From positions 182,749 through 246,748 of the forward strand of contig JAJEFA010000001.1 in NCBI GenBank assembly GCA_022820725.1: a DNA stretch of 64,000 nucleotides, in the 5' to 3' direction. Numbering within the stretch: position 1 is the first letter of the stretch; each line of letters opens with the position of its first letter. This stretch comes from Candidatus Binatia bacterium (lineage in GTDB: Bacteria > Desulfobacterota > Binatia > Bin18). Below, piece after piece: positions 1,399 through 57,344 of the stretch. A program made the translations under genes and the position numbers. The notes under the pieces are model-generated. The model saw only the letters and a program-made list of their open reading frames with translations. It did not search any database and had not been told where the DNA came from.

Positions 1399-1426
1399 GT
1401 AGGGACGACCGGCCGGTCGCCCCTAC
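1399..1426. repeat. REP-like 28-bp palindrome GTAGGGaCGACCGG|CCGGTCGCCCCTAC (one arm mismatch), between the convergent PABS/TPR gene and ispG
   Basis: Seen directly in the sequence. Belongs to the GTAGGGGC...GCCCCTAC palindrome family also found at 3800-3882, 10706-10733, 55000-55027, 57250-57277 and 57317-57344. Confidence 0.6.
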
Positions 1427-1476
1427 CGCAGCGTGATTTGCGCGAGTGGCGGGGTGGGTTTCCTTTGACCGTGCCC

Positions 1477-2637
1477 CTAGGACGGCGGTGTATGGCCGGT
1501 GGTCGCTTCCAACTGACGCTCGGCAATCAACCGGTCAATCTCGTCTTTGAGGCGGTCCAGAACAACGTCGTACTTGAAGTGACCGAGCTTGACGCTCTTC
1601 TTCTTGAGATTCACCGTGGTCGGTCCACACCACAGCCCCAGGTCCGCATCGTCGGTTTCTCCGGGACCGTTGACCCGGCAGCCCATGACGGCAATGGTGA
1701 TGTCGTGCTGCTTGGCGTAGGCGGACATGGCCTTGACCTCCTGCGCCAGCTCGACGAATTTCTCATTTTCAACCCGCGAGCAGCTTGGACAGGAGATGAT
1801 ATTCAGGCCCTTTCCGAAGTCGGGGACTGAGATGAAACGGCCGTTCTGCGTGTCGTTGAGAATGGAGAAGCCGGCGCTGACTTCCTCGTGTTTGCGCTCG
1901 TTGGGCAGGGTCAGGGACACGCGAATCGTATCGCCCACACCATTGGCCAACAGCTTCTCAAAAGCAATCCGGCTCTTGATCACGCCGTCCGGCGGCAGGC
2001 CGGCCTCCGTCACGCCCAGATGAAGGGGCACATCCGGTCGCGCTTGGGAAAACCGCGTATTGGCTTCAACGACCTTGGCCGGGTCGGAGTCCTTAAGCGA
2101 CACCACAAAGCGCTCGTATTGCAGGTCTTCCATGAGCTGGCAGTGATACAGAGTTGACTGGACCAGAGCTTCCATCTGATCGCCGGGATATTTTTCAAGA
2201 AACGCGGGGGCCACCGAACCGCAGTTGACGCCAATCCGAATGGCGACATCATGTTCCCGGGCGACATCAACCAGCCAGGCCACCTTCTCCGGAATGGTTT
2301 TCCGTTTTTCAATATGGTGCAGATGGCCGGGGTTGTAGCGGATTTTGTCAACATGGGGTGCGACCTGGTTCGCAACTTTATAATTCTCCTGAAGGTCTAC
2401 GGAGAGAGTTGCCGTGGTTTGGGCCCGGATCTCTTTGAGGGCCGCGGCCTCTTTGGGATTGTCCACCGCAATACGGACAACACCCGCTCCGGCTTCTTCG
2501 AGTTGATGCACCTGAGCGACGGTGGCATCGATGTCCGTTGTTTTGGTCGCGCACATACTCTGCACAACGATGGGGGCGCCCGCCCCAACCTGGACTTTGC
2601 CAATCCGGACCGCACGAGTAGGTTTTCTTTTCGACAT
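1477..2637 (-). CDS. ispG: 4-hydroxy-3-methylbut-2-enyl diphosphate synthase (IspG/GcpE)
   Basis: 386-aa ORF. N-terminus [35 protein letters not shown] and overall length are typical of bacterial IspG. C-terminal region has a CxxC...C cluster ([12 protein letters not shown]...[12 protein letters not shown]). Confidence 0.9.
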
Positions 2638-2658
2638 GCTTTCAACCAGTTCTCAGGT

Positions 2659-2829
2659 CTAATGTTTCACCGGCATTTGAACAATGGGAGCATTGGGGTG
2701 CTGTTCGGCGTGTTCCTCCAGCCGCTGCTGGACCTCGGCTATCCATTGCCGGGCCTTTTCCTCGTCGATTTCTCCGGCGTCTCTCTTGCGGGCGACCTCA
2801 TCCACAAACCGCTCGAAAAATGTTTTCAT
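2659..2829 (-). CDS. Small hypothetical protein, 56 aa (MKTFFERFVDEVARKRDAGEIDEEKARQWIAEVQQRLEEHAEQHPNAPIVQMPVKH); not in the supplied ORF track because it is shorter than 60 aa
   Basis: Hand translation of the minus strand between ispG (start at 2637) and folD. ATG start, TAG stop, charged helical composition, GC-rich third positions. No recognisable homology. Confidence 0.3.
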   Translation of the reverse strand: MKTFFERFVDEVARKRDAGEIDEEKARQWIAEVQQRLEEHAEQHPNAPIVQMPVKH

Positions 2830-2924
2830 ACACCACCTTTTTCCGTCCTTCGCCTATCACGAAATCGACGGATGAGCTAGGCGGCCCGCTTCCGTCCGTT
2901 TGTGTCAAATGATACCGTCTCCGC

Positions 2925-3803
2925 ATGGGTGCCCAGATCGTCAAAGGCAGGGTCATCGCCCAGTCAGTGTATACGGAACTTGAAGCGGAAATTTCAGGGT
3001 TGATCCAGCGCACCGGACGAAGACCCGTCCTGGTCAGTATTTATATCGGCTCGAACCCGGCTATCGAAGTCTATATTCGATCCATGAATCGGATTGCCCG
3101 GGGGTTGGGGATTGAGTATCGCTGGTACCATCTCCCGGACAATGCCCAAGAGGCTGAGGTGCTGCGTCGTTTGGAGCAGCTGAACCAGGACCCTGAAGTC
3201 ACCGGCGTGATTATTCAGCTCCCCCTGCCTGAACATGTCCGCCGCTCGGTTCTGGTCAACCATATTGCCCCACAAAAAGATGTGGACGGCACCCATCCGG
3301 AAAATGTCGGGGCCGCCGTCACCGGAGAGATACGGATTGGCTCCTGTACCGCCCTGGCCGTCATGCGCCTTTTGGACGCAACCGGGATCGACATGGAAGG
3401 GAAAGAGGCGGTTATTGTCGGACACAGCGACCTGGTGGGGAAGCCGCTCAGCCTGATGCTGGTCGATCGCTTAGCCACCGTGACCATCTGCCATATCGCG
3501 ACCGCTCAGCGGGGGCTGTTAGCCGACCATGTCCGTCGGGCAGAGGTCCTCGTTGTGGCCGTCGGTTCTCCTGGGTTGATCAAGGGCGACTGGGTTCGCC
3601 CTGGGGCAGCCGTGATCGATGTTGGCATCAATCAGGTGGGCTCACGCCTCGTCGGCGATGTGGAATTTGACACGGCCAAAGAACGCGCCGCATTTATTAC
3701 GCCGGTTCCGGGCGGTGTCGGACCGGTGACAGTGTCGATGCTCATGAACAATACCGTCAACGCCTTCCGTACCCAGGTGGGACATCTGTCCGAAGCGAAG
3801 TAG
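2925..3803 (+). CDS. folD: Bifunctional methylenetetrahydrofolate dehydrogenase / methenyltetrahydrofolate cyclohydrolase (FolD)
   Basis: 292-aa ORF with ...VLVSIYIGSNPAIEVYIRSMNRIARGLGIEY..., GHSDLVGKPLSLMLV and VTICHIATAQ motifs typical of FolD. The stop codon TAG (3801-3803) is supplied by the left arm of a REP palindrome. Confidence 0.9.
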   Translation: MGAQIVKGRVIAQSVYTELEAEISGLIQRTGRRPVLVSIYIGSNPAIEVYIRSMNRIARGLGIEYRWYHLPDNAQEAEVLRRLEQLNQDPEVTGVIIQLPLPEHVRRSVLVNHIAPQKDVDGTHPENVGAAVTGEIRIGSCTALAVMRLLDATGIDMEGKEAVIVGHSDLVGKPLSLMLVDRLATVTICHIATAQRGLLADHVRRAEVLVVAVGSPGLIKGDWVRPGAAVIDVGINQVGSRLVGDVEFDTAKERAAFITPVPGGVGPVTVSMLMNNTVNAFRTQVGHLSEAK

Positions 3804-3882
3804 GGGCGGCCCTTGTGGCCGCCCAGGGCATGGCACATAGGGTCAACCTTCCAAGCCGGGCAACCACAAGGGTTGCCCCTAC
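3800..3882. repeat. Composite REP-like element GTAGGGGC-[GGCCcttgtGGCCGCCC ... GGGCAACCacaaGGGTTGCCC]-CTAC between the convergent folD and PDZ genes; likely bidirectional terminator/insulator
   Basis: Outer arms match the GTAGGGGC/GCCCCTAC family. Two internal hairpins (8-bp stems). A half-site ACGTCGCCCCTAC follows at about 3913-3927. Confidence 0.5.
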
Positions 3883-3971
3883 CGCGAATAATCTGTGACC
3901 CGCATCCTCGACAACGTCGCCCCTACACGGCCTTCACAATCTCAAATCCCATACTGCCTATAAGGACGGAT

Positions 3972-4691
3972 TTACGGCCCCAGCGGTTCTTCTTCGAGCG
4001 TCACCGTGATTTGGAGGGGCTGGTTCCTGCGCAGGACGGAAAAGGCGACCTGATCTCCGGGGCTGTAGCGCTGCATGATTTCCGTAAAGTCCTGGGCGGT
4101 CCGAACCGGAATGTTTTCGATCGCGACAATCAGATCGCCGGCCGGATGGCGCTCCCGCGTGAGATGATCGTGCGCGGCAACAAGCGGCATGACAAACGGA
4201 CCGGCCGGTGACATGGCCAGCGCAATGATGGCGGCCTTCTTCACTAAATCGTTCCGGTCGTGCTGCGTGGGTGCATTCACACCCTCGAAACCGGAACGAT
4301 GCGCCGGACTGCCCTCAATCACGCTTAAGACCAGGACGCCCTCCGGTCCCTCCTCAGCTGTGGCATACAGGACGCCGAGATAGGTTCGTTTGGACTCGGT
4401 GACAGATGGGTCGGGCCATTCCGGGAATTGACCGTCCGTTGCAGCGGAGGACCAGTCTTCGTGCGGCTGCCAGTCTTCGAAATCAGACGCCGAGGGTGCG
4501 ACCGGGACGGCCGGTTGGGTCAGGCTGCCCTGGACAGGAATCTCCAGCACTTGCGGGGCGCCAACCGGCTGAGGATGCTGGGCCGCCTCAGCCGGAGCGC
4601 TCTGCGCCCGGATGAGGCCCGGCGAGGTCCAGAGACCGGCGGTCAGCACACCGGCCAGAATAACTGGAAACCAGAGGACACGCGCCTGCAT
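3972..4691 (-). CDS. Secreted PDZ-domain protein (signal peptide plus C-terminal PDZ)
   Basis: PDZ-like segment VLVLSVIEGSPAHRSGFEG...GDLIVAIENIPVRTAQDFTEIMQRYSPGDQVAFSVLRRNQPLQITV. Start placed at Met17 (MQARVLWFPVILAGVLTAGLW, a signal-peptide-like sequence preceded by AAAGGGGG). The ORF track starts at 4739. Confidence 0.65.
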   Translation of the reverse strand: MQARVLWFPVILAGVLTAGLWTSPGLIRAQSAPAEAAQHPQPVGAPQVLEIPVQGSLTQPAVPVAPSASDFEDWQPHEDWSSAATDGQFPEWPDPSVTESKRTYLGVLYATAEEGPEGVLVLSVIEGSPAHRSGFEGVNAPTQHDRNDLVKKAAIIALAMSPAGPFVMPLVAAHDHLTRERHPAGDLIVAIENIPVRTAQDFTEIMQRYSPGDQVAFSVLRRNQPLQITVTLEEEPLGP

Positions 4692-4770
4692 TATCGGACC
4701 CCCTTTTACCGTCCTCGCTCTTGACCGCTCATTATTCATCCCTCGCTCTCAAAGCGCAAGCAGGCGCGTA

Positions 4771-5325
4771 TTACCGGGCCGATTTGAGCTTGGCCAGCTC
4801 AGCCTCCAGCTCGCTGACCGGAAGAACCTCCCCGGGGTTCTGCATGACGCGGACAAAGCGCACGATCCCGTCCGTATCGATCAGCACATAGGCTCTCTGG
4901 CTGAGCCGCTTTTCCCGGTCCAGCCAGCCGACATAGTTTTCAACCACCTCGGGGGCGTCAAACGCGCTCAACAACGGATAGCTGAGGGCCAGTTGTTCGC
5001 GAAATATACGCTGGGAAGCCGTGTGATTCGTACTGATTCCCAGGACCACCGCGTCGAGTTGCTTTTCCTGCCGAGCATCCTGCCCGGTTGCTAACTGAAG
5101 GGTTCAGCCTGGGGTAAAGTCCAGAATATAAAACAGCAGCAGGACATTCCGTTTGCCCGCAAACTCCGAGAGACAGACCGTCTCACCGTCCTGTGCGGGC
5201 AAACAGAAGGCGGGCGCGGGGCTCCCGACCTCAACCGCGGCACCGACGGGATGACCCCACAGCAGCAGACCGGCGACGAGGACTACGCACCAATTCCAGT
5301 TCGATTTGCTCATACCCATTCTCAT
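4771..5325 (-). CDS. Bcp/PrxQ-type peroxiredoxin with signal peptide, interrupted by an in-frame TGA (5104-5106) exactly at the peroxidatic Cys position: candidate selenocysteine peroxiredoxin, otherwise a pseudogene
   Basis: Track ORFs 5104..5451 and 4771..5049 are in the same frame, separated by a TGA plus 18 sense codons. The joined protein ...LLLFYILDFTPG-[TGA]-TLQLATGQDARQEKQLDAVVLGISTN...PLLSAFD...RAYVLIDTDGIVRFV aligns block by block with E. coli Bcp (FYPKAMTPGC-TVQACGLRD / VDVLGISTD / TLLSDED / SFLIDADGKIEHVF). Start at the MRMGM (5325) behind GGGGGAGGGGGG; a signal peptide follows. Confidence 0.6.
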
Positions 5326-5336
5326 CCCCCCTCCCC

Positions 5337-5801
5337 CTAGCGTACGGCATACACATCGTAGCGCACTGCGCCCCGTTCCAGATACGCTTCTCCGACCCCG
5401 ACACACAGGCAACGATTCATCCAGAGATAGTCGGGGTGAGCGGTCTGACACCAGGGATTCGTCCGAATCGGCGTTCCGCTCGGCGGAAGCGCGCCGTCCA
5501 GAAACTGCTGATAGCCGTCCGCACCCAAATCCAACACGCCATTATAGGTCACATAAATCAACGCGCCGTCGTTCGCCTCAACAGTCGCCCGCACATCGAG
5601 ATACGCCACCCCATCGGTCCGGACGGTCAGCCAGTCCGCGCCAACCGGGCGCAGCCGGCCTTGCAGTTTGGGACCTTCAACTTCGCCGCCCGTGATGTAG
5701 ACATTGACCCGGGCACCGCCGGGTACCGGCCCTATTGTTTCAGGCGGCATCTCCAGGGTGGCGGTATAGGAAAAGAGGTGCTCCATAGTATACTCGAACA
5801 T
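5337..5801 (-). CDS. DUF3237-family protein (hypothetical), immediately upstream of the peroxiredoxin gene
   Basis: Start placed at MFEYTMEHLFSYTATLEMPPETIGPVPGGARVNVYITGGEVEGPKLQGRL..., typical of DUF3237 proteins. The longer track ORF (to 5870) adds a low-complexity N-terminal extension. Confidence 0.55.
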   Translation of the reverse strand: MFEYTMEHLFSYTATLEMPPETIGPVPGGARVNVYITGGEVEGPKLQGRLRPVGADWLTVRTDGVAYLDVRATVEANDGALIYVTYNGVLDLGADGYQQFLDGALPPSGTPIRTNPWCQTAHPDYLWMNRCLCVGVGEAYLERGAVRYDVYAVR

Positions 5802-5892
5802 GTCATCTCCTTGTTGTGGCGGCGGCGACCGGACAAGAGCAGACCTACCCCGTCCTCCCCGGAGCGTCAAGACAAGGGAAAGGAGTCAGCCT

Positions 5893-6114
5893 ATGGCAAA
5901 AGCCCAATACTGTCTCATGTGTGCCGACGAACTCTACCAGATGAGCAACTACGGAGAGCCGGCGGACGGCAAGTGGCCGCCCATGGTTGAAGACGACACA
6001 TACGGGACGCTGATTATCTGTCCCGCGTGCGAGGCGGAGCACCTCACCTTTATTGACGACACCCCCGGCCATCCGCCGGTGCGGCGTATTCGGATGCTCA
6101 AGCCCCGCGAATAG
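5893..6114 (+). CDS. Small zinc-ribbon protein (73 aa, two CxxC pairs: CLMC ... CPAC)
   Basis: Start placed at MAKAQYCLMCADELYQ, preceded by AAGGAG. Divergent from the DUF3237/Prx operon and convergent with the KamA-like gene. Confidence 0.45.
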   Translation: MAKAQYCLMCADELYQMSNYGEPADGKWPPMVEDDTYGTLIICPACEAEHLTFIDDTPGHPPVRRIRMLKPRE

Positions 6115-6116
6115 CC

Positions 6117-7511
6117 TCAGTGTCCGGCTGAAGCCTGCGCCTGTATGGCCCGGTATTCGGGCTCAAAGAAAAACTGGGATTCCCCGCCGGCAGGTTTGAG
6201 GTGGTCGAGCCAGGTCGCGTTGGGGTCAAACTTGGCAAAGAACGGCCGCTGGACCCAATCGGCATTACGCCCCTGGATAAAGCGCAGGACAAAGACCTTT
6301 TCGCCGTTTATTTCGGTGATGCCCTGCACCTCGACCTTGCCCGGCCCCGCACTCATCGACGGACCACGGGCGGTACGCGCCAGGCCGGAGACCTGGGAAA
6401 TGGCCTCGCGGTAAATCTCCCAGGCCCGAGCCAGCGGCACCTCAAAATAGTGCCGCGCCCCGGTATCGCGTTCAACAAACATATAGTACGGAATGATGCC
6501 CAAGCGGACCTGTGTCCGCCACATCCGGGTCCACACCGCGGCATCATCGTTGATATGGGCCAGCAGCGGCCCCTGACCGCGAATGACCGCGCCGGTCGAG
6601 CGCAGACGCCGGATGGCTGCACGGACCTGTGGCTGTTCCAATTCTCTCCAGTGGTTATAGTGCGCCATGAACGCCACGTGTTTACCAGCGGCGACAAGCT
6701 GCTCACACAGGCGCATGAGGTCGTCGGCATCCGCATCGCTCGTAAAACGGAAAGGCCAGTAGGTCAGCGCTTTCGTACCGATCCGAATGGTTTGGACGTG
6801 CTCGAACTCCGGTTGGATCAAAGGACGCAGGTATTCGGCCAAATGGTGGGTCTTCATGACCATCGGGTCTCCGCCGGTCATGAGCAGATCACTCACCTGC
6901 GGCTGTGAGGCCAGATAGCTATGCAGCTGACCGGCGTCGTTTGAATTAAACCGCAGCTCCTGAATGCCCACGAACTGCGCCCAGCGAAAGCAGAAGGTGC
7001 AATAGGTATGACATGTCTGGCCCTGGCTCGGAAAAAAGAGGACGGTTTCGCGATACTTGTGCTGCATGCCGGGCAGCGATTCGCCGTCCATGTGCGGGAC
7101 ATTCATCTGCTGCTGGCCGGCGGGATGCGGGTTCAGCCGGATGCGGATCTCATCTGCGGCGGCTTTGATTGCGATCCGATCCGCCCCTTTCCTGAGCAGG
7201 TCAGCCACATGCTCAAAGTCTTCCGGCTGCAACATGCCCGGCTGCGGAAAAGTCAACTGGAACATGGGGTCATCGGGGATATTGTCCCAATCAATGAGAT
7301 TCTCGATGACGTACGGATTTATGCGAAAGGGCAGGACAGTGGCGACAACCCGCATCTGAAAACGTTGCTCATCAGATAAGCGTTGCAGTTGCGGAATCTG
7401 GTCGAGGTGACGCTCATTGTACACCTTGAAGCGCGGAGCGGAGGATTCGGACGTGACGGCAATGGACGATCCGTTTGCAGTACCAGGGCCATGAGTGGTT
7501 TCGTTCAGCAT
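6117..7511 (-). CDS. KamA-family radical SAM protein (lysine 2,3-aminomutase-like)
   Basis: Radical SAM CxxxCxxC motif (TCHTYCTFCFRW). Family-typical length and conserved blocks (PSQGQTCHTYC..., GGDPMVM..., RIGTKALTYWP). Start at MLNETTHGP (Met13), preceded by GGAGG. Confidence 0.8.
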   Translation of the reverse strand: MLNETTHGPGTANGSSIAVTSESSAPRFKVYNERHLDQIPQLQRLSDEQRFQMRVVATVLPFRINPYVIENLIDWDNIPDDPMFQLTFPQPGMLQPEDFEHVADLLRKGADRIAIKAAADEIRIRLNPHPAGQQQMNVPHMDGESLPGMQHKYRETVLFFPSQGQTCHTYCTFCFRWAQFVGIQELRFNSNDAGQLHSYLASQPQVSDLLMTGGDPMVMKTHHLAEYLRPLIQPEFEHVQTIRIGTKALTYWPFRFTSDADADDLMRLCEQLVAAGKHVAFMAHYNHWRELEQPQVRAAIRRLRSTGAVIRGQGPLLAHINDDAAVWTRMWRTQVRLGIIPYYMFVERDTGARHYFEVPLARAWEIYREAISQVSGLARTARGPSMSAGPGKVEVQGITEINGEKVFVLRFIQGRNADWVQRPFFAKFDPNATWLDHLKPAGGESQFFFEPEYRAIQAQASAGH

Positions 7512-7548
7512 AGAGATACCTCCTCCGAGGAGTCTCCTCTTTCCCACT

Positions 7549-7627
7549 CACACCGCTTCGTACCCACCCACACCGCTTCATATCAACTCACACCGCTTTA
7601 CCAACGCATACCGCTTCATACATTGCG
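7549..7627. repeat. Four imperfect direct repeats of about 20 bp (CACACCGCTTCgtacccacc / CACACCGCTTCatatcaact / CACACCGCTTtaccaacg / CAtACCGCTTCatacattgcg) in the promoter region of the KamA-like gene
   Basis: Seen directly in the sequence; periods of 20, 20, 18 and 20 nt; 38 nt upstream of the kamA-like start codon. Confidence 0.5.
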
Positions 7628-7699
7628 AGCCTGAGAAAAGAGGGCAGCTCTCCCTTCTGGAGAGCGGAGGGAGACTGTAGAAAGAAACAGGCGAAAAGT

Positions 7700-7763
7700 C
7701 AAATAAAAAAGGGCGCTTATAAGAACAAGGTTTTATTCCAGACCAAGGAGAGAGGGCGCCCTT
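7700..7763 (-). terminator. Putative intrinsic terminator of clpB (stem AAGGGCGC/GCGCCCTT followed on the minus strand by a TTTTTTATTT run)
   Basis: Inverted repeat at 7709-7716 / 7756-7763 with an A-run at 7701-7710 on the plus strand (a T-run on the minus strand), about 55 nt downstream of the clpB stop. The loop is unusually long (about 39 nt), which lowers confidence. Confidence 0.45.
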
Positions 7764-7816
7764 CTACCCCCCTGGTCTGAATACGCAGCCACCTCGTGAG
7801 CATGATGAGGAAGCAT

Positions 7817-10438
7817 TTACGCCACCTCAGCCACCGGTGCGGTCGTGAAGGTGAGGTCGTGGTGGTCGTAGTCGACGATCACGTGGGCGTTCTCCGCCAC
7901 CTCGCCAGCGATGATTTTCCGGCCAAGATTGGTCTCTATCTCTTTCTGGAGGAGGCGTTTGAGGGGCCGCGCCCCATAGGTCGGGTCATAGCCGGTGTGG
8001 GCGAAGTATTCCTTAGCGCTTTCCGTCAGTTCAAGCGTGATGTGTCGCTCGGCCAGCCGCTCCCGCAAGTGCGCAAGCTGAATCTCGACGATCTGTTTGA
8101 GGTGGTCCCGGTTCAGGCTGTGGAATACCACAATCTCGTCGACCCGATTCAGAAATTCCGGCCGGAATTCGTTCCGCAGGGCATCCAGCACATCTCTCTT
8201 CATGCGCTCATACGCCTCGGCGTCATCACCGCCCCGATAGCCCAGGATCAACTGGCTGCCGACATTCGAGGTCATGATGATAACGGTGTTCTTAAAATCA
8301 ACCGTCCGGCCGTGCCCATCGGTTAACCGTCCGTCGTCCAGAATCTGGAGTAAGGCATTGAAGACATCGGGGTGGGCCTTTTCGATCTCGTCGAACAGGA
8401 TGACCGAATAGGGTTTCCGCCGGACCGCTTCGGTCAGTTGTCCGCCTTCGTCATAGCCGACATACCCCGGAGGCGCACCAATGAGACGCGCGACCGTATG
8501 CTTCTCCATATATTCCGACATATCGAGCCGGACCATATTCGTCTCATCGTCAAACAAAAACTCGGCCAGCGCACGGGCCAGTTCGGTTTTGCCCACCCCG
8601 GTCGGCCCCAGAAAGATGAACGACCCAATCGGCCGGTGCGGGTCCTTGAGTCCCGAGCGGGCCCGAATCACCGCGTCGGCCACCGCCTGGACGGCCTCTT
8701 CCTGACCGATCAGCCGGTGGTGCAACAACTCGCCGAGTTGCAACAATTTTTCCCGTTCGCCTTCGAGCAGCTTTGCGACGGGAATACCCGTCCAGCGCGA
8801 GATAATGGCGGCAATATCGTCCTCGTCAACCTCCTCCTTGAGGAGGCGACTCGGACCCTGTTCGCTCTGGAGCTTGGCTTCTCCATCCGCCAGGTCGCGC
8901 TCAAGCTGGGCCAGCTTGCCGTATTTCAGTTCGGCGACCCGGTTGAGATCGTAGTCGCGTTCGGCCTTTTCAATGGCGCGCCGGGTCTGTTCAATGTCCT
9001 CTTTGAGACTGCGGAGCTGACCGATGCTGTTCTTCTCCATCTCCCACCGGGCAGTCAGCGCCCCGGCCTCAGCCTGGCAATCCGCCAGCTCCTTTTCCAG
9101 CTTCTCCAGCCGGAGCCGCGAGGCCTGGTCGGTCTCCTTGCGCAGGGCCTCGCGCTCAATTTCAAGCTGCAAGACCCGCCTGGACACCTCGTCCAGTTCG
9201 GTCGGCATGGAGTCGATTTCGGTGCGGAGCCGGGCCGCGGCTTCGTCCATCAGATCAATAGCCTTGTCCGGCAAAAAGCGATCGCTGATGTAGCGGTGCG
9301 ACAAGACCGCCGCGGTCACCAGCGCCGCATCCTTGATGCGAACCCCGTGGTGGATTTCGTAGCGTTCGCGCAGCCCGCGCAGAATGGAAATCGTGTCTTC
9401 CACGGACGGCTGGTCAACCGTGACCGGCTGAAAGCGCCGTTCCAGCGCCCGGTCCTTTTCCACATATTGACGATACTCGTCCAGCGTCGTCGCCCCGATG
9501 CAGTGCAGCTCGCCACGGGCCAGCATCGGTTTCAGCAGATTGGACGCGTCCATGGCGCCCTCCGACGCTCCCGCGCCGACCACCGTATGCAACTCGTCTA
9601 TAAACAGCACCACCTCGCCCTCGGACTCCTGGATCTCTTTGAGCACGGCTTTGAGCCGCTCTTCGAACTCACCCCGAAATTTTGCACCGGCAACCAGCGC
9701 GCCCATATCCAGGACGATCACGCGGCGATTCTGCAAACTTTCCGGCACATCGCCGCTGACGATGCGCTGGGCCAGCCCTTCCACAATGGCGGTCTTGCCC
9801 ACACCTGGGTCACCGATCAGCACCGGATTATTCTTGGTGCGGCGAGAGAGCACCTGTACGATCCGACGGATTTCATCATCCCGGCCAATCACCGGGTCAA
9901 GCTTGCCCAGGCTCGCCGCCTGCGTCAGGTCCCGACCATAACGTTCCAGGGCCTGATAGGTGCCCTCCGGATTTTGACTGGTCACACGCTGGTGGCCGCG
10001 TACTTTCCGGAGCGCCGCAAGCAGACGCTCTCGGCTCAGGCCGTGGTCGCGCAGCAAACGGCCCGTCACGCCCTCGTCTTCCAGCATGGCCAGCAGCAGG
10101 TGCTCAACGCTGACGTAGTCGTCTTTCAGTTCCTTGGCTTCATCTTCAGCGCGGGTGAGCACCTGGGACAAGCGCTGAGTGACATAAACATGGTCCGGAC
10201 CACTGGCCGGGCCGGAAACCTGCGGAATGCGATCCAGCAACTTTTCAAGCTCAGCGGTCAGCGCGTCGAGGGACACTCCGGCCTGAATAATCAGCGCCGG
10301 GACGATTCCGTCGGGAGATTCCGTGAGTGCGGCCAATACATGTTCAATATCAACTCCCTGGTGATTCCGTCGGGTTGCCAGCGCCTGGGCCTGGCGTAGA
10401 GCTTCCTGCGATTTTTCCGTCAAGCGGTTGAGATCCAC
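7817..10438 (-). CDS. clpB: ATP-dependent chaperone/disaggregase ClpB
   Basis: Two AAA+ modules ([13 protein letters not shown]... and [12 protein letters not shown]...), a coiled-coil middle domain and a C-terminal D2-small domain. Canonical N-terminus (V)[17 protein letters not shown] at a GTG (10438) preceded by GGAGGAAGGAGG. The track ORF extends 36 codons further upstream to an ATG at 10546. Confidence 0.9.
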
Positions 10439-10439
10439 G

Positions 10440-50528: not shown

Positions 50529-50760
50529 GGGGTTCCCTCACACAGCAGTGCAGCCACCGCCTGATTCTACTGTCCTAACGCTCGGACGAATTCTAATAAG
50601 ACGGAAGCATGCACCGAAGCAATACCCCCCACATCACATCATCCACCAAGCTGGGATGGTAAAAGGCAAGTTGCTCTACTCCGCCCTGTCACCCGCGACG
50701 ATCCCATTGACCTTGATCCCTGTGACGCTATGGTGAGCTACCCCTGAGGAGATCGGCCCC

Positions 50761-51018
50761 ATGCGTACGGATACCGTTGTACGAGCCCGCATTGATCCTG
50801 ATATAAAGGCACGAGCGGCTGAAGCACTGGAAGTGCTGGGACTGTCCGTATCGGACGCCATTCGCCTCCTGCTGATACACATAGCGGAGGAAAAGCGCCT
50901 GCCGTTCACAGACCGAGAACCCAATGCCGTCACCGCCAAGGCGATAAACCAGTTGGAAAGCGGTAAGGGAAAACGCTTCGACACACCGGACGACCTGTTT
51001 CAAGACTTGGGTATCTGA
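50761..51018 (+). CDS. dinJ: DinJ/RelB-family type II antitoxin (ribbon-helix-helix); no cognate toxin gene adjacent
   Basis: MRTDTVVRARIDPDIKARAAEALEVLGLSVSDAIRLLLIHIAEEKRLPF is a close match to DinJ N-termini. GAGGAG Shine-Dalgarno. The downstream space is occupied by the convergent HigA-like gene. Confidence 0.7.
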   Translation: MRTDTVVRARIDPDIKARAAEALEVLGLSVSDAIRLLLIHIAEEKRLPFTDREPNAVTAKAINQLESGKGKRFDTPDDLFQDLGI

Positions 51019-51028
51019 CTGAACGTGC

Positions 51029-51316
51029 TCACGCCGGGCGAATGACTTCAATCTTTAACCCCGTCGCCCGCACGACCGGAGCTAGCGTCGACCACCGGGG
51101 GTTCCCCTTGGCCGACAGTACGCGGTACAGACTCTCCCGGGGAATCCCCGCCCGTTTGGCGACCACCGCCATGCCTTGTGCTTCAGCGACTTTCCGCAGC
51201 GCTTGCAGGAAGACGGCCGGCTCCTCGTCCTCTGCCGCTGCCGTCAGATATTCGGCGCTAAAACCGGGATCTTTGAGCTGTTCCCGCAGCCACTCGTTAT
51301 GCTTCACCTGTTTCAT
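51029..51316 (-). CDS. HigA-family 'addiction module antidote' protein (COG3636-like HTH); no killer gene upstream
   Basis: ...FSAEYLTAAAEDEEPAVFLQALRKVAEAQGMAVVAKRAGIPRESLYRVLSAKGNPRWSTLAPVVRATGLKIEV matches the antidote family consensus. Start placed at Met35. Confidence 0.6.
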   Translation of the reverse strand: MKQVKHNEWLREQLKDPGFSAEYLTAAAEDEEPAVFLQALRKVAEAQGMAVVAKRAGIPRESLYRVLSAKGNPRWSTLAPVVRATGLKIEVIRPA

Positions 51317-51421
51317 GATCCCCTCGCTTGCGGCTGACCCCGAGTGTGTCACGGTCTTGACCGCCAATTCTTCAACCGCGCCTTCGCTTCGGCAATATAC
51401 CTTGCGGGCCTCATACATTCT

Positions 51422-53746
51422 TCAGAGTGCCCTCTCACGCAGCAAGCGCCGTTTGAGACGATTTTTCAGGGAAAGCAGCCACGGACGGTTGGTCTTGAGC
51501 AGGGCGGTATAGAGCGGCAAGAACATCCGGCGGACCGAAAAATACAGCACCGTCCGCCAGGAGTGGCCGTACGCGGCCACAAGATGGGCCGGAATCAAAC
51601 GCGTTCCTTGCTCTTGCCCGGCGCCCTGCTCCCGTTCCTGCCACAGCCAGTCCGTCACCGTCGTGATCCGCAGATACTCCACCGCCTGCGTTGCACAGGC
51701 GCGTCCGAGACCGAGACCGGGAACCGGCGCGGTGGCCGCTGCCCGCTCCTGCCGTGCGGCTTCACAGGCCGCCAGAACGGTATCGGTCATCTGCTCCAGC
51801 CGGAAGTAATCCTCAATACGCTGGCGCCCCTGTTGGCCCATGCTCTTGCGCTGCTCCGGCTCGTCCAGCAGTCGGGCCAGAACGGTCGAATACTGCCGGG
51901 CTTCGTCTTCTTCCGATCCACGGCCGATCAACACCCCGCATTCAGGCGTGACCAGCTCACGCTGTCCGCCCACGTCAGCCCCCACCACCGGCACTCCGCA
52001 GGCCAGGGCCTCATAGACCGAAAGCGCGATCCCCTCCCACTCCGAGGGCAGAAAGAAAATATCCGCCGCGGCCAACAGGTCCCGAATATCCGTATTGGAC
52101 AACTCCCCGACAAGACGGACCCGCCGTTCCAGCCGGTGCTTGCGGACAAAGGACTTGAGCCAGGCAAAATCCGGCCCGTCGCCGGCAACCACTAACACGA
52201 AATCAGTGTCGCCCCGGGCAAGGCGCAGCGCGGTCTGCGCCAGAACCTTCGGTTGCTTTTGGGCGCACACGCGCCCGACAAACACAATCAGCGGCGTTGA
52301 TTCGGCAATGTCGTAGTGCCGGCGGGCACGGCGGCCCCGCTCGGCGTCGGGCCGCCAGGAGTCGGCGTCGATATTCGTATGACACACCTGGATCGCATCC
52401 GGGTTGGCGCCGCGGGCCGCCATCCAGGCTTTCAGATGCTCCGACGACACCAGGCTGCGGTCAAGCGTTTCCTGATAGGTGACCGACATCTGCGGATAGC
52501 CGCCGTTCTTCCACGCCTCTTCCTCAATATGGCAAAAATCGAGCAGGGGCAGCTTTGGAAAATGCGCCCGCAGATAGGGCAGGAGCTGGTAGCCGAACTC
52601 GCTGTGCGAGACGAGCACCGCGTCCATCTCCCGGCTGTGGATGAGAGAGCGCACAAAGCGCGGATAATCCGCGGGCCGCAGAAAACGGTGCAGGAGAAAA
52701 ATATCGGGGGTCAGGCGGGCAAACTGGGCCAGCCAGGGATGATCGCTACTGAGCGTCGTCGCTATGCTCACCTCCCAGCCGCGCCGGACAAGCTGGCCGA
52801 GCAGATCCAGGTTGAACTTGTCCGACCCGCCCATAGCCAGCCACGGCACGATCAGCAGCAGACGCGGCTTTTCCTTGTGGAGTTTGTTCTCCCACGGGAG
52901 GGTATCGGACACGGTTTCATACGGCGCGAGCGGCGCGGCCTGGGGAGTGGGAAAATCCTCCCAGAGGCGCGGGTAGCGCTGGCGCATTTTTTTCCGAAAG
53001 GCATCCTCGCGCTTCCCGCCATCCCAGTTGTCCCAGCGGTCGCCGTGATTCTCGCGGCGGCGGTACCAGTCGAGATATTCCGGCAGCGTCGTGCCCCAAT
53101 GGCCCTCACTGGCGCAGTGCAGCCAGAAGTCCCAGTCTTCCAGCCCGCCCCGGATCGTTTCGTCATAGCCGCCGACGGCGGTATGCACGCTGCGGCGCAC
53201 CGCGCCGGTGATGTCCACCAGGTTCTGCTCCAGGAAGACCCCCCCGTTGTGGAAGCCCTGCTCCCACAGGTACTCGCTGGCGTCAAAGCCGACCGAGTAG
53301 CCCTTCACAAAGGCGAATTCGGGATAGGACTCCAACAGCCAGACCCATTTTTCTATGGCGGTCGGCTCCAGCAGATTATCCGTATCGAGCTGGACGACGT
53401 ACTCCGCACGCGCGGCCCGGTACGCGGTATTGCGTCCGGCGCTGGGCCCCTGGTTGACCTCGTGGTCAATTACCCGAATCCGGGGGTCCGTGTTGCGGTA
53501 GGAGTCGAGAATAGCCAGGGCCTCCGGGTTGGTCGAGCCGTCGTTGACGATAATCCACTCCCACTGCTGGAAGGACTGCCGCAGGACGGACCGCGCCGTG
53601 TCATGAAAAATCGCGCCGGTGTTGTAATACGGCGTCACGATGGTCACCGCCGGCGGGACGCTCGGGTCAATCGGACGATAAGCATAGACCGGACGCCGGT
53701 CCGAGGCCGGCGTATTCGTATAATCGGGACTGTTGGGATCAATCAT
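51422..53746 (-). CDS. Bifunctional glycosyltransferase, N-terminal GT2 plus C-terminal GT4 domains
   Basis: GT2 domain: VTIVTPYYNTGAIF...IIVNDGSTNPE...VQLDTDN. GT4 domain: ...LIVFVGRVCAQKQPKVL...IFFLPSEWEGIALSVYEALACGVPVVGADVGGQRELV. Confidence 0.8.
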   Translation of the reverse strand: MIDPNSPDYTNTPASDRRPVYAYRPIDPSVPPAVTIVTPYYNTGAIFHDTARSVLRQSFQQWEWIIVNDGSTNPEALAILDSYRNTDPRIRVIDHEVNQGPSAGRNTAYRAARAEYVVQLDTDNLLEPTAIEKWVWLLESYPEFAFVKGYSVGFDASEYLWEQGFHNGGVFLEQNLVDITGAVRRSVHTAVGGYDETIRGGLEDWDFWLHCASEGHWGTTLPEYLDWYRRRENHGDRWDNWDGGKREDAFRKKMRQRYPRLWEDFPTPQAAPLAPYETVSDTLPWENKLHKEKPRLLLIVPWLAMGGSDKFNLDLLGQLVRRGWEVSIATTLSSDHPWLAQFARLTPDIFLLHRFLRPADYPRFVRSLIHSREMDAVLVSHSEFGYQLLPYLRAHFPKLPLLDFCHIEEEAWKNGGYPQMSVTYQETLDRSLVSSEHLKAWMAARGANPDAIQVCHTNIDADSWRPDAERGRRARRHYDIAESTPLIVFVGRVCAQKQPKVLAQTALRLARGDTDFVLVVAGDGPDFAWLKSFVRKHRLERRVRLVGELSNTDIRDLLAAADIFFLPSEWEGIALSVYEALACGVPVVGADVGGQRELVTPECGVLIGRGSEEDEARQYSTVLARLLDEPEQRKSMGQQGRQRIEDYFRLEQMTDTVLAACEAARQERAAATAPVPGLGLGRACATQAVEYLRITTVTDWLWQEREQGAGQEQGTRLIPAHLVAAYGHSWRTVLYFSVRRMFLPLYTALLKTNRPWLLSLKNRLKRRLLRERAL

Positions 53747-56267
53747 TTTTTCTACTCTGGCCGGCTACTTTGGCCGGAAATTCCTGAACCGGCTTGACCA
53801 GTTTCAAGCGGGTGCCCAGGCGGCCCCACCAGCTCTGCTGCCAGTGGCGTGTCTGCGCCTGCCAGTGTTCAGTCTGTTCTTCGTGCTGCCGGGCAATCTT
53901 CTCCCAGTTGTTGCGCTGTTCTTCCATCCACGCCCTGGCTTTCTCCAGCTCGCCGATCCACGCCTGCTGCTCCTGCACCATACGTTCTCGTTCCTCCGCC
54001 TGGGTCTGCCAGTTCGTCCGCTGCGCTTCCAACCACGTTCTGCCTGTTTCGAGCTCCTCTATCCAGCCCTTGAGTTCCCGAATGAAGGTATTCTGGGTCT
54101 CGACCACGTTGCGCCAACTGGCCTGCTGGCCTTCCAGCCAGACTTTCCCGCGCCGGAGTTCCGCGGTCCACTGCCGCAGCCTGACCAGCGCGTCGAACGC
54201 TTCTTCAAGGACCGGGCCGTCGGCGTGCGGTCCCCGCTCCCGGTACAACCGGAGGCCGCGGCGGGCGGCGGTGGTTATTTCCTCCACCCCGCGCTCGAAT
54301 TGGTAGGCGTGCGAGGCATTAGCGCCGTGCCAGCGATAGCGCACCAGGGGACGCGCCAGAAAGCCCACCCGATACCTCAGGCACAGCCGGAGCCACATGG
54401 CATAGTCACAGGCAAAGCCCAGGTCCCGGTCGAACCCGCCCTGTTCGATGAGCGCGCGGCGGCGGGCCAGGACGGTCGGCGCGCACACCCGGTTGCCGTT
54501 GAAGAGCAGGGTCCGAAAATACTCCGGCCCGTCCCAGACCGTGTCGTCGGTCGCGTCCTCAATCCAGTCGGCAAACGCGCTTGGCGCCGACTCCTCGACC
54601 AGCGTTTCCACCCCGGAATGGACGAAACCGACGGTTTCGTCCGCGCTCAACACCTGGACCTTGCACTCCAGATTTTCGGGCAGCATCACATCGTCCTGAT
54701 GAAAGAGACACACAAACGCTCCACCGGCGAGTTCGAGACAGCGGTTCCAATTGGCCGGGATACCCAGCCGCTCCGGGTTGCGGTGCAGCTGTATTCTCGG
54801 GTCGGAAAAGGATTGAACAATATCGAGCGTGGCGTCGGTTGAGCCGTCGTCAACAACCAGGAGTTCAAAATCCTGATAGGTCTGGTGCAGGATGCTGCGC
54901 AGCGCCGCTTCAATATACTTCGCCCCGTTATACGTGGGCAGACAGACGCTCACCGCGCGGGCCGATGTCGGTCGCGGCCTCTCCTCACCCGCCGGGAGAG
55001 TAGGGGCGACCGGCCGGTCGCCCCTACTTGCTTCCGTTGGTCTATCCCGCACGGCCTCATACACGGCCTCCATATCCTGCGCGTACGCCTGCGGGTCTCG
55101 GATGGGTGTCGAGGCTGGCGTGAGCTGTTGACGCAACCGGGTATCGGTCCGCAGCCGCTCCAGGCAGCGCCCCAGGTCGTCGGCGTTCTCGGGTTCAAAC
55201 AGCAGGCCGTTCACCCCGTCCCGAATGACTTCGGGCAGGGCGCCGCGCCGGGCGGCAATGACCGGCAGGCCGGCCTGAAGGGCCTCTCGCGTGACCAGCG
55301 AAAAGGTTTCCTCGCACACGCTGGGCACAACCAGCACGTCGTGCCGGGCCAGAATCGCACTCAATTCGTCGTGGGCATAGGTGCCGCAAAAACGAATGGG
55401 CAGGCCGGCCGCGTCCGCCTCCAGTCGGTCGGCATAGGCGCGCCGGTCCGCGGCCCGCTCACCGTACAGGGAGGCGGCAAAACTGCCGGCCGGCACACCG
55501 TGTACGGCCTGGATCAACAGATGCGGGCCTTTATGCGGCACCAGCGCACCGATATACAACACCCGCATGGGCTGCCGGTCGTCCCGGCGTCCATATGGGA
55601 TAGGCACGACACCGGGGGCCAGGACCTGGAGACGCGGTTCCACAAAAGGAAAAATCTCCTGCATCCTCTCGGCCAGAAATCGGGACGGAACAATGACCCG
55701 CTGTGGCATATGCAGGAGTTGTTCAAAATAGGCAAAGCGCCGGCGGGCCTCCTCCGCAGTCGTCTCCGCCTGGAGGCAGGCAATACAGCGCTCGCCCCGG
55801 TCCGGTCCCGGACACAGCCGGGTGTGGTTGTCTATCAGGTGGATGCGGGCGCAGGCAAAAAAGAAGTCGTGCAGGCTGAGCACGACCGGATAGCCGAGCC
55901 GGGCCGAGGTCCGGAGTACGCTCCCGGACAGATGGATGACGTGCTGAACGTGCACGACATCGGGACGCGAGTCGGTCAGTATCCGGTGGAACGCCTCGTC
56001 GAGAAACGGATGGTCATACTCCAGGCGAAAATGTGAGGCATGGCTGAGAGTGTTGACCACCCGCACGACGCGCACCCCTTTGTGTCCGCTGACAGCCGGC
56101 GCATCCTCCCGCACCGAGCATTCCTCGGCAGCGGGGTCGGTGGTCCGGGCAAAGACCGTCACCGCATGGCCTCTCTGGGCGAGCGCCTGAGCCAGGGTTG
56201 CGGTAACGAGTTCCGCCCCACCCCACTTCTCGGGCGGATAGCCGTGCACGACCTGGAGAATACGCAT
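53739..56267 (-). CDS. Trifunctional-architecture glycosyltransferase: GT4 domain - linker containing a REP palindrome - GT2 domain - C-terminal W-rich coiled-coil repeats
   Basis: GT4 domain: MRILQVVHGYPPEKWGGAEL...CGTYAHDELSAILARHDVLVVPSVCEETFSLVTREALQAGLPVIAARRGALPEV. GT2 domain: VSVCLPTYNGAKYIEAAL...LLVVDDGSTD. C-terminal region: about 35-aa repeats WLEGQQASW...WIEELETGR / WLEAQRTNW...WIGELEKAR / WMEEQRNNW.... 8-nt overlap with the downstream GT2-GT4 gene. Confidence 0.8.
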   Translation of the reverse strand: MRILQVVHGYPPEKWGGAELVTATLAQALAQRGHAVTVFARTTDPAAEECSVREDAPAVSGHKGVRVVRVVNTLSHASHFRLEYDHPFLDEAFHRILTDSRPDVVHVQHVIHLSGSVLRTSARLGYPVVLSLHDFFFACARIHLIDNHTRLCPGPDRGERCIACLQAETTAEEARRRFAYFEQLLHMPQRVIVPSRFLAERMQEIFPFVEPRLQVLAPGVVPIPYGRRDDRQPMRVLYIGALVPHKGPHLLIQAVHGVPAGSFAASLYGERAADRRAYADRLEADAAGLPIRFCGTYAHDELSAILARHDVLVVPSVCEETFSLVTREALQAGLPVIAARRGALPEVIRDGVNGLLFEPENADDLGRCLERLRTDTRLRQQLTPASTPIRDPQAYAQDMEAVYEAVRDRPTEASRGDRPVAPTLPAGEERPRPTSARAVSVCLPTYNGAKYIEAALRSILHQTYQDFELLVVDDGSTDATLDIVQSFSDPRIQLHRNPERLGIPANWNRCLELAGGAFVCLFHQDDVMLPENLECKVQVLSADETVGFVHSGVETLVEESAPSAFADWIEDATDDTVWDGPEYFRTLLFNGNRVCAPTVLARRRALIEQGGFDRDLGFACDYAMWLRLCLRYRVGFLARPLVRYRWHGANASHAYQFERGVEEITTAARRGLRLYRERGPHADGPVLEEAFDALVRLRQWTAELRRGKVWLEGQQASWRNVVETQNTFIRELKGWIEELETGRTWLEAQRTNWQTQAEERERMVQEQQAWIGELEKARAWMEEQRNNWEKIARQHEEQTEHWQAQTRHWQQSWWGRLGTRLKLVKPVQEFPAKVAGQSRKND
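55000..55027. repeat. REP-like 28-bp perfect palindrome GTAGGGGCGACCGGCCGGTCGCCCCTAC located in-frame inside the GT4-GT2 linker (encodes SRGDRPVAPT)
   Basis: Seen directly in the sequence; identical to the copy at 57317-57344 and nearly identical to 1399-1426. Confidence 0.6.
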
Positions 56268-56274
56268 AGGCCGT

Positions 56275-57264
56275 TTATTTCTGTTTTATGCTCTCCTGTA
56301 AAGAAATCCGCCGTACCAGGGAGGGCGCCAGGCTCTGCTTGCGTTCGCCGAGCCAGGTGCCCCATAGTGCCGCAAGATGCCAGGCCAGGGCCAGGGCCCC
56401 CCAGCGCAGCCCGACCCGCAGCCGTCCCCGGTGTGTGAGCCAGCGCCAGAACGACAGGTCCCGGCGGGCGGCGCGCCAGGCTGTTGACGGCGTACGGCCC
56501 AGGCACAGACTGGAGGCCGCATCCAGATCGCTCAGCGCGCGGGCATGATCGAAATGCCGCCGGAAATTGGGCCAGGGGCCATACCCGTGGGAATGGTACA
56601 CCAGCGAATCGGCCCGATAGGCGGTCTGATAGCCGGCCTCAAGCACCCGCCTGGCCCACAGCTGGTCCTCGGCGAATTCCACCTCGGGGAAAGGGTGTTG
56701 CTGCCATACGCTGCGGCGCAACACCGAACTGACGTTCGAGAAAAAAGAAAAAGGAGCCGGATTGTCGGCATAATCGGGGGCGGCGCTGCTGTTCAGGCAG
56801 GATTCCGCCCGGCCCGACAGCTCGTCTTCAACAATGCGCCGCCACTCCATGGGGTGACAGTGCGGGCGGGGGAGATGGCGGCTATACGCCCCGGCAATGG
56901 ACGAATCGGCCCGGAGGGGGGCCAGCAGCGCGTCCAGCCAGTCGGCATTGGCGGGAGTCGCGTCCTGGGTCAGAAACACCAGATAGTCGCCCCGCGCGTA
57001 GCTTGCGGCCAGATTGCGGGTTTTGCCGTGGCCGAACTCCTGGGGCGGGATCCGTATGACGCGCACCGTGTGGGCCGCAAGAATGGCCAGGGTGTGATCG
57101 CGCGAACCGGAATCCACGGCAATGATCTCGTCGAGTTGAAAGCGGCCCCGTTGTTGACCGATACGGTCCAGCACTTCGGCCAGATAGCGCGCGCCGTTTT
57201 TTGTGACCAGGAGAACGGATATACTTGGCAGATCGGTCATAGCGTCTGGGTAGGGGCGACGCAT
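56275..57264 (-). CDS. GT2 glycosyltransferase (rhamnosyl/galactosyl-transferase-like)
   Basis: ISVLLVTKNGARYLAEVL...IIAVDSGSRD...VFLTQDA motifs. Track start ATG (57264) is the centre (GCATGC) of a REP palindrome whose left arm (AGGGG) lies at Shine-Dalgarno distance. An alternative start is the MTDLPS Met at 57240. Confidence 0.75.
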   Translation of the reverse strand: MRRPYPDAMTDLPSISVLLVTKNGARYLAEVLDRIGQQRGRFQLDEIIAVDSGSRDHTLAILAAHTVRVIRIPPQEFGHGKTRNLAASYARGDYLVFLTQDATPANADWLDALLAPLRADSSIAGAYSRHLPRPHCHPMEWRRIVEDELSGRAESCLNSSAAPDYADNPAPFSFFSNVSSVLRRSVWQQHPFPEVEFAEDQLWARRVLEAGYQTAYRADSLVYHSHGYGPWPNFRRHFDHARALSDLDAASSLCLGRTPSTAWRAARRDLSFWRWLTHRGRLRVGLRWGALALAWHLAALWGTWLGERKQSLAPSLVRRISLQESIKQK

Positions 57265-57277
57265 GCGTCGCCCCTAC
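57250..57277. repeat. REP-like 28-bp perfect palindrome GTAGGGGCGACGCATGCGTCGCCCCTAC
   Basis: Seen directly in the sequence; overlaps the 5' end of the GT2 gene. Confidence 0.6.
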
Positions 57278-57316
57278 ATCCCCTCTCGGGCTGGGTGATG
57301 TTCATTGTGTCGTGAG

Positions 57317-57344
57317 GTAGGGGCGACCGGCCGGTCGCCCCTAC
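57317..57344. repeat. REP-like 28-bp perfect palindrome GTAGGGGCGACCGGCCGGTCGCCCCTAC
   Basis: Seen directly in the sequence; 40 nt from the previous copy, between the GT2 start and the methyltransferase stop. Confidence 0.6.

Follow-up and report, generated by a model that had tools for sequence, protein, structure and literature searches.

The 64,000-nt stretch of Candidatus Binatia bacterium DNA analyzed here (contig JAJEFA010000001.1; hereafter, the window) contains scattered short palindromes that are, with high probability, GTAG-tagged repetitive extragenic palindromic (REP) elements in the double-foot form, which accompanies subclass 2.4 of the REP-associated tyrosine transposases (RAYT/TnpAREP) and would be spread or exchanged by an HUH/Y1 enzyme acting on single-stranded DNA. 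This kind of repeat has already been described; what is new is the host, an uncultured lineage absent from the survey of Quentin et al. In general, REPs have a GT(A/G)G head followed by a G+C-rich palindrome, are often placed head-to-head, lie mostly downstream of open reading frames (ORFs), and are linked to RAYTs (Nunvar et al. 2010; main text of Di Nocera et al. 2013, PMC3733652). In those of subclass 2.4, three G-C pairs form the stem base, and the double foot is made of 5' GT[AG]G and 3' C[TC]AC (Quentin et al. 2018, BMC Genomics 19:475, PMC6006769). Among the double-foot REPs in Table S1 of that survey are GTAGGGGCGACCGGCCGGTCGCCCCTAC from Chloroflexus aggregans (ACL24704.1), GTAGGGGCAATTCATGAATTGCCCCTAC from Chlorobium chlorochromatii (ABB27827.1), and GTAGGGGCGAAAAATTTTTCGCCCCTAC from Caldilinea aerophila, and the octamer GTAGGGGC was found 105 times in the table. 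Two of the three 28-mer variants of the window were present there verbatim: the copy at 55000-55027 is identical to the C. aggregans REP, and that at 10706-10733 to the C. chlorochromatii REP. The preliminary description of this DNA had called the elements REP-like, which is sustained by the GTAG head, the G+C-rich hairpin, a distribution that appears dispersed and mostly extragenic in the DNA covered, and the association of the 28-mers with RAYT genes elsewhere. Its statement that they could not be assigned to a described REP family does not hold, as they match the double-foot REPs of TnpAREP subclass 2.4.

A search of the window for GTAGGGGC-N(8-38)-GCCCCTAC returned four exact matches, all with N12, at 10706-10733 (core AATTCATGAATT), 55000-55027 (core GACCGGCCGGTC, in frame inside an ORF), 57250-57277 (core GACGCATGCGTC, with a CATG centre), and 57317-57344 (core GACCGGCCGGTC, 39 nt from the previous copy), whereas none of 100 dinucleotide-preserving shuffles of the window gave a match. 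The four perfect 28-bp palindromes proposed at these positions are thus borne out. A fifth copy with core GACCGGCCGGTC, at 1399-1426, is also real but is not perfect, as had been claimed, since its left foot has one mismatch (GTAGGGaC); a sister strain has a perfect palindrome in its place. Therefore, four of the five 28-mers are perfect palindromes, and of the three with core GACCGGCCGGTC, two are wholly identical. In this 28-bp form both strands read alike, and the 3'-terminal CTAC, found in all five, is the reverse complement of the GTAG foot. The 83-bp feature at 3800-3882, taken before for outer arms around two internal hairpins, is real as well, and is better seen as a REP doublet, i.e., two inverted 25-nt units of GTAG plus hairpin with the GTAG ends pointing outwards and a 33-nt spacer between them, arranged as a head-to-head, REPIN-like dimer. 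Its single-foot units are GTAGGGGCGGCCCTTGTGGCCGCCC at 3800-3824 on the plus strand (GTAG plus GGGCGGCC-CTTGT-GGCCGCCC) and GTAGGGGCAACCCTTGTGGTTGCCC at 3858-3882 on the minus strand (GTAG plus GGGCAACC-CTTGT-GGTTGCCC); in both, GTAG is followed by an 8-bp stem and a 5-nt loop, and a compensatory change, GG/CC versus AA/TT, separates one from the other. The half-site suggested near 3913-3927 was located at 3906-3926 on the minus strand (GTAGGGGCGACGTTGTCGAGG), and is a degenerate remnant with an intact foot but a decayed hairpin, whose folding (-2.3 kcal/mol, z = 0.46) was no better than that of shuffled sequences. GTAG was found in nine of nine units and was directly followed by GGG...CCC in every copy, with the single mismatch at 1399 as the sole exception. 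Moreover, all 12 exact GTAGGGGC octamers on the two strands of the window fall within elements listed in the preliminary description.

As single-stranded DNA, the perfect 28-mers were predicted to form 12-bp hairpins of -11.9 (10706-10733) to -14.6 kcal/mol (57250-57277), and the mismatched copy at 1399-1426 a hairpin of -8.9 kcal/mol; including this last one, z-scores ranged from -2.6 to -7.0. The single-foot unit at 3800-3824 folded at -11.8 kcal/mol with GTAG unpaired, and that at 3858-3882 at -9.5 kcal/mol. The whole doublet gave one long hairpin of -28.1 kcal/mol (z = -4.3), and it is the only element here that has the long-hairpin structure of a REPIN. In single-foot elements of the form GTAGGGGC-RR-CCCTTGTGG-YY-GCCC, RR and YY were Watson-Crick complementary in 51 of 54 combinations, and the remaining three were G.T pairs. 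Stem pairing is clearly maintained, and this part of the earlier proposal, that hairpin potential is conserved by compensatory change, stands. The 12-nt cores, however, do not vary freely in place; they are discrete sub-families common to several phyla, each within its own RAYT lineage. When IMG/VR contigs were scanned with the 12-nt core left free, perfect palindromes were found at 79 of 146 sites.

The link to transposase genes came from other genomes. The exact GACCGGCCGGTC 28-mer was present in at least 120 stretches of JGI metagenome contigs from many samples, and these 120 stretches (0.73 Mb) contained, at 11 loci, 13 full-length RAYT-like ORFs that are 188-402 aa long and have both the HUH (MPNHIHGIV) and the Y..NP motif. 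All 13 carried a GTAGGGGC-N12-GCCCCTAC element inside the ORF, and at several loci, more REP copies were located 22-174 nt from the gene or overlapped its end. In the alignment, the in-frame REP reads VGATGRSPL straight after the MPNHIHGIV motif, and a Fulvitalea homologue lacks this segment. The ORFs matched only the NCBIfam model NF047646, "REP-associated tyrosine transposase", with weak matches to Pfam Y1_Tnp, and the TnpAREP structure PDB 4ER8; in two stretches the NF047646 matches had E-values of 1e-15 to 1e-19, under the 80-bit cut-off. Controls amounting to about 2.4 Mb, made of ClpB neighbourhoods and IMG/VR contigs, yielded no such RAYT genes. The loci that host the RAYTs with the 28-mer range from 36 to 69% G+C. 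Two of them, L220 and L323, contain two tandem RAYTs each. REPs of the GACCGGCCGGTC type lie within and next to one of these genes; the second gene has AATTCATGAATT REPs instead, of which the internal one reads VGAIHELPL at the same position as VGATGRSPL. Because these tandem paralogues carry distinct core variants, the variable core can be understood as a set of discrete sub-families that each belong with a separate RAYT lineage, and this accounts for identical 28-mers in this bacterium, Chloroflexi, Chlorobi, cyanobacterial plasmids, and IMG/VR contigs. The AATTCATGAATT 28-mer is found in identical form on plasmids of Pseudanabaena, Nostoc, and Brasilonema, 28-mers also occur in IMG/VR contigs, and the GACGCATGCGTC variant is present in two of the latter. 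The exact 28-mer was not found in the INPHARED phage collection.

Other candidate partners were discarded. The plasmid RAYTs of Kovacikia, Gloeocapsa, and a Chloroflexota bacterium were rejected as the cognate subclass, as they go with other GTAG REPs (GTAGGATGCGTTA... and GTAGGGTGCGC...); these lie to either side of the RAYT in Kovacikia and in the Chloroflexota plasmid, and Gloeocapsa has them on a single side. The Y1 genes of Chlorohelix, Bernardetia, and Fulvitalea were rejected too, since they are not flanked by GTAGGGGC. A scan of a genome collection by ClpB returned, among the matches listed, only single-foot GTAGGGGC hairpins in Udaeobacter, Spirulina, and Sulfotelmatobacter loci, and no close relative of this bacterium, the best being a "Syntrophobacterales" metagenome-assembled genome with 78% identity. 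REPs of the GTAGGGGC-N12-GCCCCTAC type are found in viral or prophage sequence too. In the IMG/VR contig 2820084079_000003 (L031 4657-5292), two elements with A+T-rich cores lie in one unidentified 211-aa ORF, which they leave unbroken, and at another locus (L005), two copies flank a gene that adjoins a long, possibly tail-related ORF.

The organism is a diderm (TamB, Omp85, OprB) with about 60% G+C. Neighbouring genes were assigned from Pfam and stored gene calls, and flanking DNA was taken from a 155.7-kb scaffold, KELL22-1_..._116 of ENA ERZ23491296, which is 100% identical to the window. There are seven REP loci in the 64 kb and two more within 2.5 kb to the right, these being AATTCATGAATT-type copies 1.9 and 2.5 kb past the window end; eight of nine units lie outside coding sequence or at gene ends. 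The copy at 1399-1426 is located between the stops of the convergent TPR/spermine-synthase-like gene (stop 1266) and gcpE (stop 1477). The doublet at 3800-3882 begins at the last codon of folD (2925-3803), faces a convergent PDZ gene, and supplies through the GTAG of its first unit the TAG stop codon of folD (3801-3803). The copy at 10706-10733 follows an aminotransferase stop codon (10756, minus strand) at a distance of 22 nt and lies upstream of clpB, a gene of the same orientation, and that at 57317-57344 is 10 nt downstream of a methyltransferase stop (57355, minus strand). Both 57250 and 57317 lie between this stop and the start of a glycosyltransferase family 2 (GT2) gene on the same strand, with 57250-57277 directly 5' of the GT2 gene; gene callers take the ATG in the CATG centre of this copy as a start codon. 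The stored GT2 call (56275-57264) indeed begins in this REP; an in-frame ATG at 57240 suits the start of the Pfam domain better. CATG-centred double-foot REPs supply both TAG and ATG on both strands.

We considered whether the elements could be primarily transcription terminators or hairpins that stabilize 3' RNA ends, with the REP resemblance being secondary. Most copies lie 0-50 nt past a stop codon (overlapping that of folD at 3800, and 10, 22, and 50 nt away at 57317, 10706, and 1399, respectively), their hairpins are stable, and for the REPs of E. coli an influence on mRNA stability and on termination has been reported (PMC6006769, background section). However, a terminator scan of positions 1-12,500 called none of the three REP sites in that region, no T-run was seen by eye after any copy in the window, and no Rfam match was obtained in the window. 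One copy is translated within a glycosyltransferase, another is directly 5' of a gene start, identical 28-mers occur within RAYT coding sequences and phage genes, and relatives do with intergenic gaps of 3-10 bp at the same junctions. This explanation is accordingly quite improbable. It had also been said that most copies sit between convergent genes in terminator- or insulator-like positions, and this was not upheld: only two of six sites (1399 and 3800) are convergent, 10706 and the 57250/57317 pair are co-directional, and 55000 is in frame.

The copy at 55000-55027 is read in frame as RGDRPVAPT in the interdomain linker of an 842-aa protein (53739-56267, minus strand) that is called as one product and joins glycosyltransferase family 4 and family 2 domains (GT4-GT2). 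The sister strain and homologues with 83-85% identity have the same peptide (carriers P0121, P0123, and P0187), one homologue of 80% has it in degenerate form (P0135), while most relatives have a shorter segment, such as PRPGP, in its place. A fusion of GT4 and GT2 genes mediated by the REP was rejected, as two-domain homologues of 790-870 aa exist down to 48% identity. Comparison of these proteins indicates that the fused architecture is ancestral, with the REP peptide replacing a short, variable linker segment. Linkers of other relatives contain LRLGSGQAL or PSPLPEGEGR... modules derived from repeats, and this linker (window 54960-55060, minus strand) seems to be a hot spot where, across homologues, small repeats insert in frame. 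REPs in frame within host genes are already on record (PMC6006769; main text of PMC3733652).

Next, the sites were compared in three relatives with conserved gene order, whose GcpE proteins are 97%, 92%, and 89% identical to that of the window; GcpE homologues of 92-99% identity are encoded on many contigs of 4.4-5.2 Mb, and some of these proteins are labelled "Desulfurellaceae bacterium" by NCBI. At the gcpE/TPR junction, only 6-10 bp separate the stops in relatives L339 and L340, with no REP, whereas about 210 bp including REP 1399 are found here. The PDZ/folD junction is empty in L340 (3 bp) and has 127 bp without a REP in L339, and the 3' end of folD departs from its relatives exactly where the doublet starts. 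At the aminotransferase/clpB site, both L339 and L340 carry a single-foot REP (GTAG[G/A]GGCAACCCCCCGTGGTTGCCC) instead of the AATTCATGAATT double foot; this unit has the GGGCAACC/GGTTGCCC stem of 3858-3882 with the loop CCCCGT rather than CTTGT. In the most distant relative, both variants occur at another place, in a cluster that has decayed. Since orthologous sites are empty in two cases and hold a different REP in one, in relatives of 92-97% GcpE identity, the REPs have been gained, lost, or exchanged within the clade. In the part that both share, the sister strain (ERZ25068633 ctg159183), which is 99.4-99.6% identical, has REPs at the same three sites, with no polymorphism. From about 46,800 rightwards, its gene island is replaced relative to the window (L206 1-3664), with a sulfatase and unknown genes where the window has methyltransferases and glycosyltransferases, and at another place on its contig it encodes a version of the 842-aa glycosyltransferase that is 95% identical (P0121). 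A RelB gene and one of the HI1420-downstream family, resembling a toxin-antitoxin pair, lie within the glycosyltransferase island of the window (49,800-51,400).

The HUH/Y1 mechanism of cleavage and rejoining has been demonstrated for E. coli TnpAREP. By analogy, a RAYT encoded elsewhere in this genome would recognize the hairpin plus GTAG on single-stranded DNA, then cleave and rejoin REP DNA, and copies would thereby be spread or exchanged. The 28-bp palindromes may have arisen from inverted doublets such as 3800-3882 through loss of the centre. Neighbouring genes are visibly touched: folD has its stop supplied, the glycosyltransferase linker has nine added residues, and ATG and TAG codons are offered; such effects would be a by-product, and an additional influence as 3' RNA hairpins may be conjectured. 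A multi-copy state in the genome is hinted at by four short-read Logan contigs, five ends of which lie within REPs or at their borders (window 1412, 3828, 10707, and 57318, the last one twice), because a multi-copy repeat or a strong palindrome breaks assembly.

Several observations weigh against assigning the elements to RAYT-borne REPs, or fit it poorly. No RAYT was found in the window and its flanks of about 15 kb (about 79 kb in all) with Pfam lists, phmmer and jackhmmer searches that took E. coli TnpAREP as the query (its sequence being checked against 4ER8), or an HUH...Y..NP regular expression, and copy number is that counted in 64 kb and flanks. Neither the GACGCATGCGTC variant nor the CCCTTGTGG (CTTGT) single-foot unit is in Table S1 of PMC6006769. 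In the predicted fold of the double-foot form, GTAG is paired with CTAC, and in the E. coli structure it stays unpaired and acts as a guide at the hairpin foot (PMC3479197, PMC6006769); as far as we could find, the literature contains no biochemical test of a double-foot REP. Furthermore, the IMG/VR scan gave 49 distinct cores with matching outer four pairs, and the central tetranucleotide of 25 was self-complementary too; chance would give about three. A simple hairpin model does not explain this. The symmetry of the centre exceeds what a hairpin needs, and it would fit either an origin from inverted doublets or a need for the same substrate on both strands.

That same two-fold symmetry through the centre, together with the constant outer 8 bp, is what one would expect of operator sites read as double-stranded DNA by a dimeric protein, in a regulon or as a nucleoid-organizing motif. 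We consider this very improbable, given that the sites occupy 3' ends, ORFs, and structural regions of phages and not promoters, that cores differ within one genome while the same sequences recur at 36-69% G+C across phyla and in RAYT genes, and that a non-symmetric single-foot form coexists.

A further reading, which we put forward tentatively and regard as rather unlikely, is that the double-foot symmetry is itself functional, offering an identical substrate on both strands or allowing processing as a cruciform or dimer, and that the RAYT gene is coupled to its own substrate. It is suggested because all 28 bp, including the "loop", are self-complementary, and because each cognate RAYT gene contains a master copy in frame. 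If true, gene and substrate would be coupled via autoregulation or co-transfer, which would explain letter-perfect 28-mers across phyla and from 36% to 69% G+C; a substrate present on both strands would cover the leading or the lagging template; and the elements would be a recurrent source of new linker peptides and of stop and start codons (TAG and ATG, on both strands) in this lineage.

Among the rivals to RAYT-driven spread, only one stays plausible, namely that the elements are relics of an ancestral RAYT or of transfer, with no RAYT active now and with persistence that is passive or due to host use. It is less probable than spread by a current RAYT, yet clearly ahead of the other alternatives. 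The lack of a RAYT in the 79 kb speaks for it, as do the identity of all three sites compared between the sister strains, the decayed half-site and the one-mismatch copy, and the presence of the linker REP in homologues whose proteins are 85-95% identical, a sign that the insertion may be old. On the other hand, RAYTs are typically single-copy, so their absence from 79 kb weighs little. The linker peptide remains intact in a homologue that is 15% diverged in protein, and this, along with the perfect palindromes, the core common to three copies, and the full identity of two, points to renewal, conversion, or selection and away from neutral decay. REP and RAYT activity in this organism is a probable reading drawn from comparison with other genomes.

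An IS1595-type zinc-ribbon protein is encoded about 5 kb past the window end, and this, as well as the resemblance of the 83-bp doublet to a small inverted-repeat element, could be taken to mean that the palindromes are fragments of the terminal inverted repeats of an insertion sequence (IS) or a miniature inverted-repeat transposable element. Nonetheless, there were no target-site duplications, no longer unit was shared around most copies, and no DDE transposase bounded by the motif was present in any locus examined, whereas the literature and the metagenome analysis link the 28-mers to Y1/HUH RAYTs; this origin is therefore the least credible of all those weighed. The IS1595 zinc-ribbon gene and a HicA-like gene are just past the right end (L208 19346-20003). 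A second REP-like family, CCTGGGAGCGCGGGCATCTTGCCCGC(CT)GCGGGCTGGAAGCCCGC, often present as inverted or tandem hairpin pairs, was observed at 61000, 61521-61583, 63182, and 63982 of the window and at L208 4405-4480, 5977, 6782, and 7582; it clusters at 61-67 kb among small ORFs (HicA-like, CCDC90-like), and one Logan contig begins at 61577, inside such a repeat. The AATTCATGAATT-type REPs share an upstream motif, CAYCCCACRTCT (window 10695-10705, and L208 4254 and 4814; an orphan motif is at window 1304, minus strand), and the two copies beyond the window also share GGAYCAGCCCGAAC downstream, so this variant may be part of a longer repeated unit or may prefer a particular target. Beside REP 1399, positions 1340-1392 hold a CCCTCTCCC-AGG-GGGCGAGGG hairpin and a GGGTGAGGG-type motif; a similar hairpin is present in relative L340, and 87 nt running from the REP into the adjoining region are 78% identical to an unrelated metagenome contig (L285). 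This suggests composite repeat clusters.

In practical terms, annotation ought to mask these elements or give them a REP label. Left unlabelled, they mislead gene callers, as with the start codon taken from the CATG centre at 57250, ORFs extended through REPs, and the folD stop provided by a REP. In addition, short-read assemblies break at them, and they are signposts to differences between close relatives. With this window, the hosts of REPs and RAYTs of subclass 2.4 come to include an uncultured lineage, and a REP translated in a glycosyltransferase linker is cleanly exemplified; no new question is opened.

Of the systems known, the closest are the double-foot REPs of TnpAREP subclass 2.4 (PMC6006769), with which the elements share the 28-nt length, the GTAG and CTAC feet, the GGG/CCC stem base, the self-complementary 4-nt centre, coexistence with single-foot "canonical long" REPs, and in-frame insertion into coding sequence; unlike those examples, the host lineage is outside the survey, and the RAYT is linked via loci of other organisms. 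The repeats also resemble the E. coli REPs, their mosaic arrangements (BIME), and TnpAREP (RayT, PDB 4ER8), in having a G+C-rich hairpin with a GTAG guide at its foot, a distribution that appears dispersed and mostly extragenic, inverted doublets, and an HUH/Y1 gene flanked by its own REPs, and the RAYTs beside the present 28-mer match both 4ER8 and NF047646. However, E. coli REPs are imperfect and bulged, with one unpaired GTAG (PMC2817692, Table 1), while here the foot is duplicated and self-pairing. The doublet at 3800-3882, two inverted REPs plus a spacer forming one long hairpin, is similar to the REPINs of Pseudomonas fluorescens (Bertels & Rainey 2011, PMC3116915), for which the REP doublet has been proposed as the mobilized unit; in contrast to Pseudomonas, where REPINs go with other RAYT groups and have GTGG/GTAG heads and different stems, the window has one doublet, and its commonest form is the collapsed 28-bp palindrome. 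Finally, the 24 families of GTAG-tagged repeats (Di Nocera et al. 2013, PMC3733652) are, in the main text of that paper, alike in the tag, stems of 6-13 bp, complementary substitutions that define sub-families, head-to-head dimers, location downstream of co-directional and convergent ORFs, and occasional intragenic copies. There the tag is unpaired and at one end only; that main text does not describe doubly tagged perfect palindromes, nor does it contain the strings GTAGGG and CCCTAC, the family consensus sequences being given in its figures. The window elements differ in bearing the tag at both ends of a palindrome.

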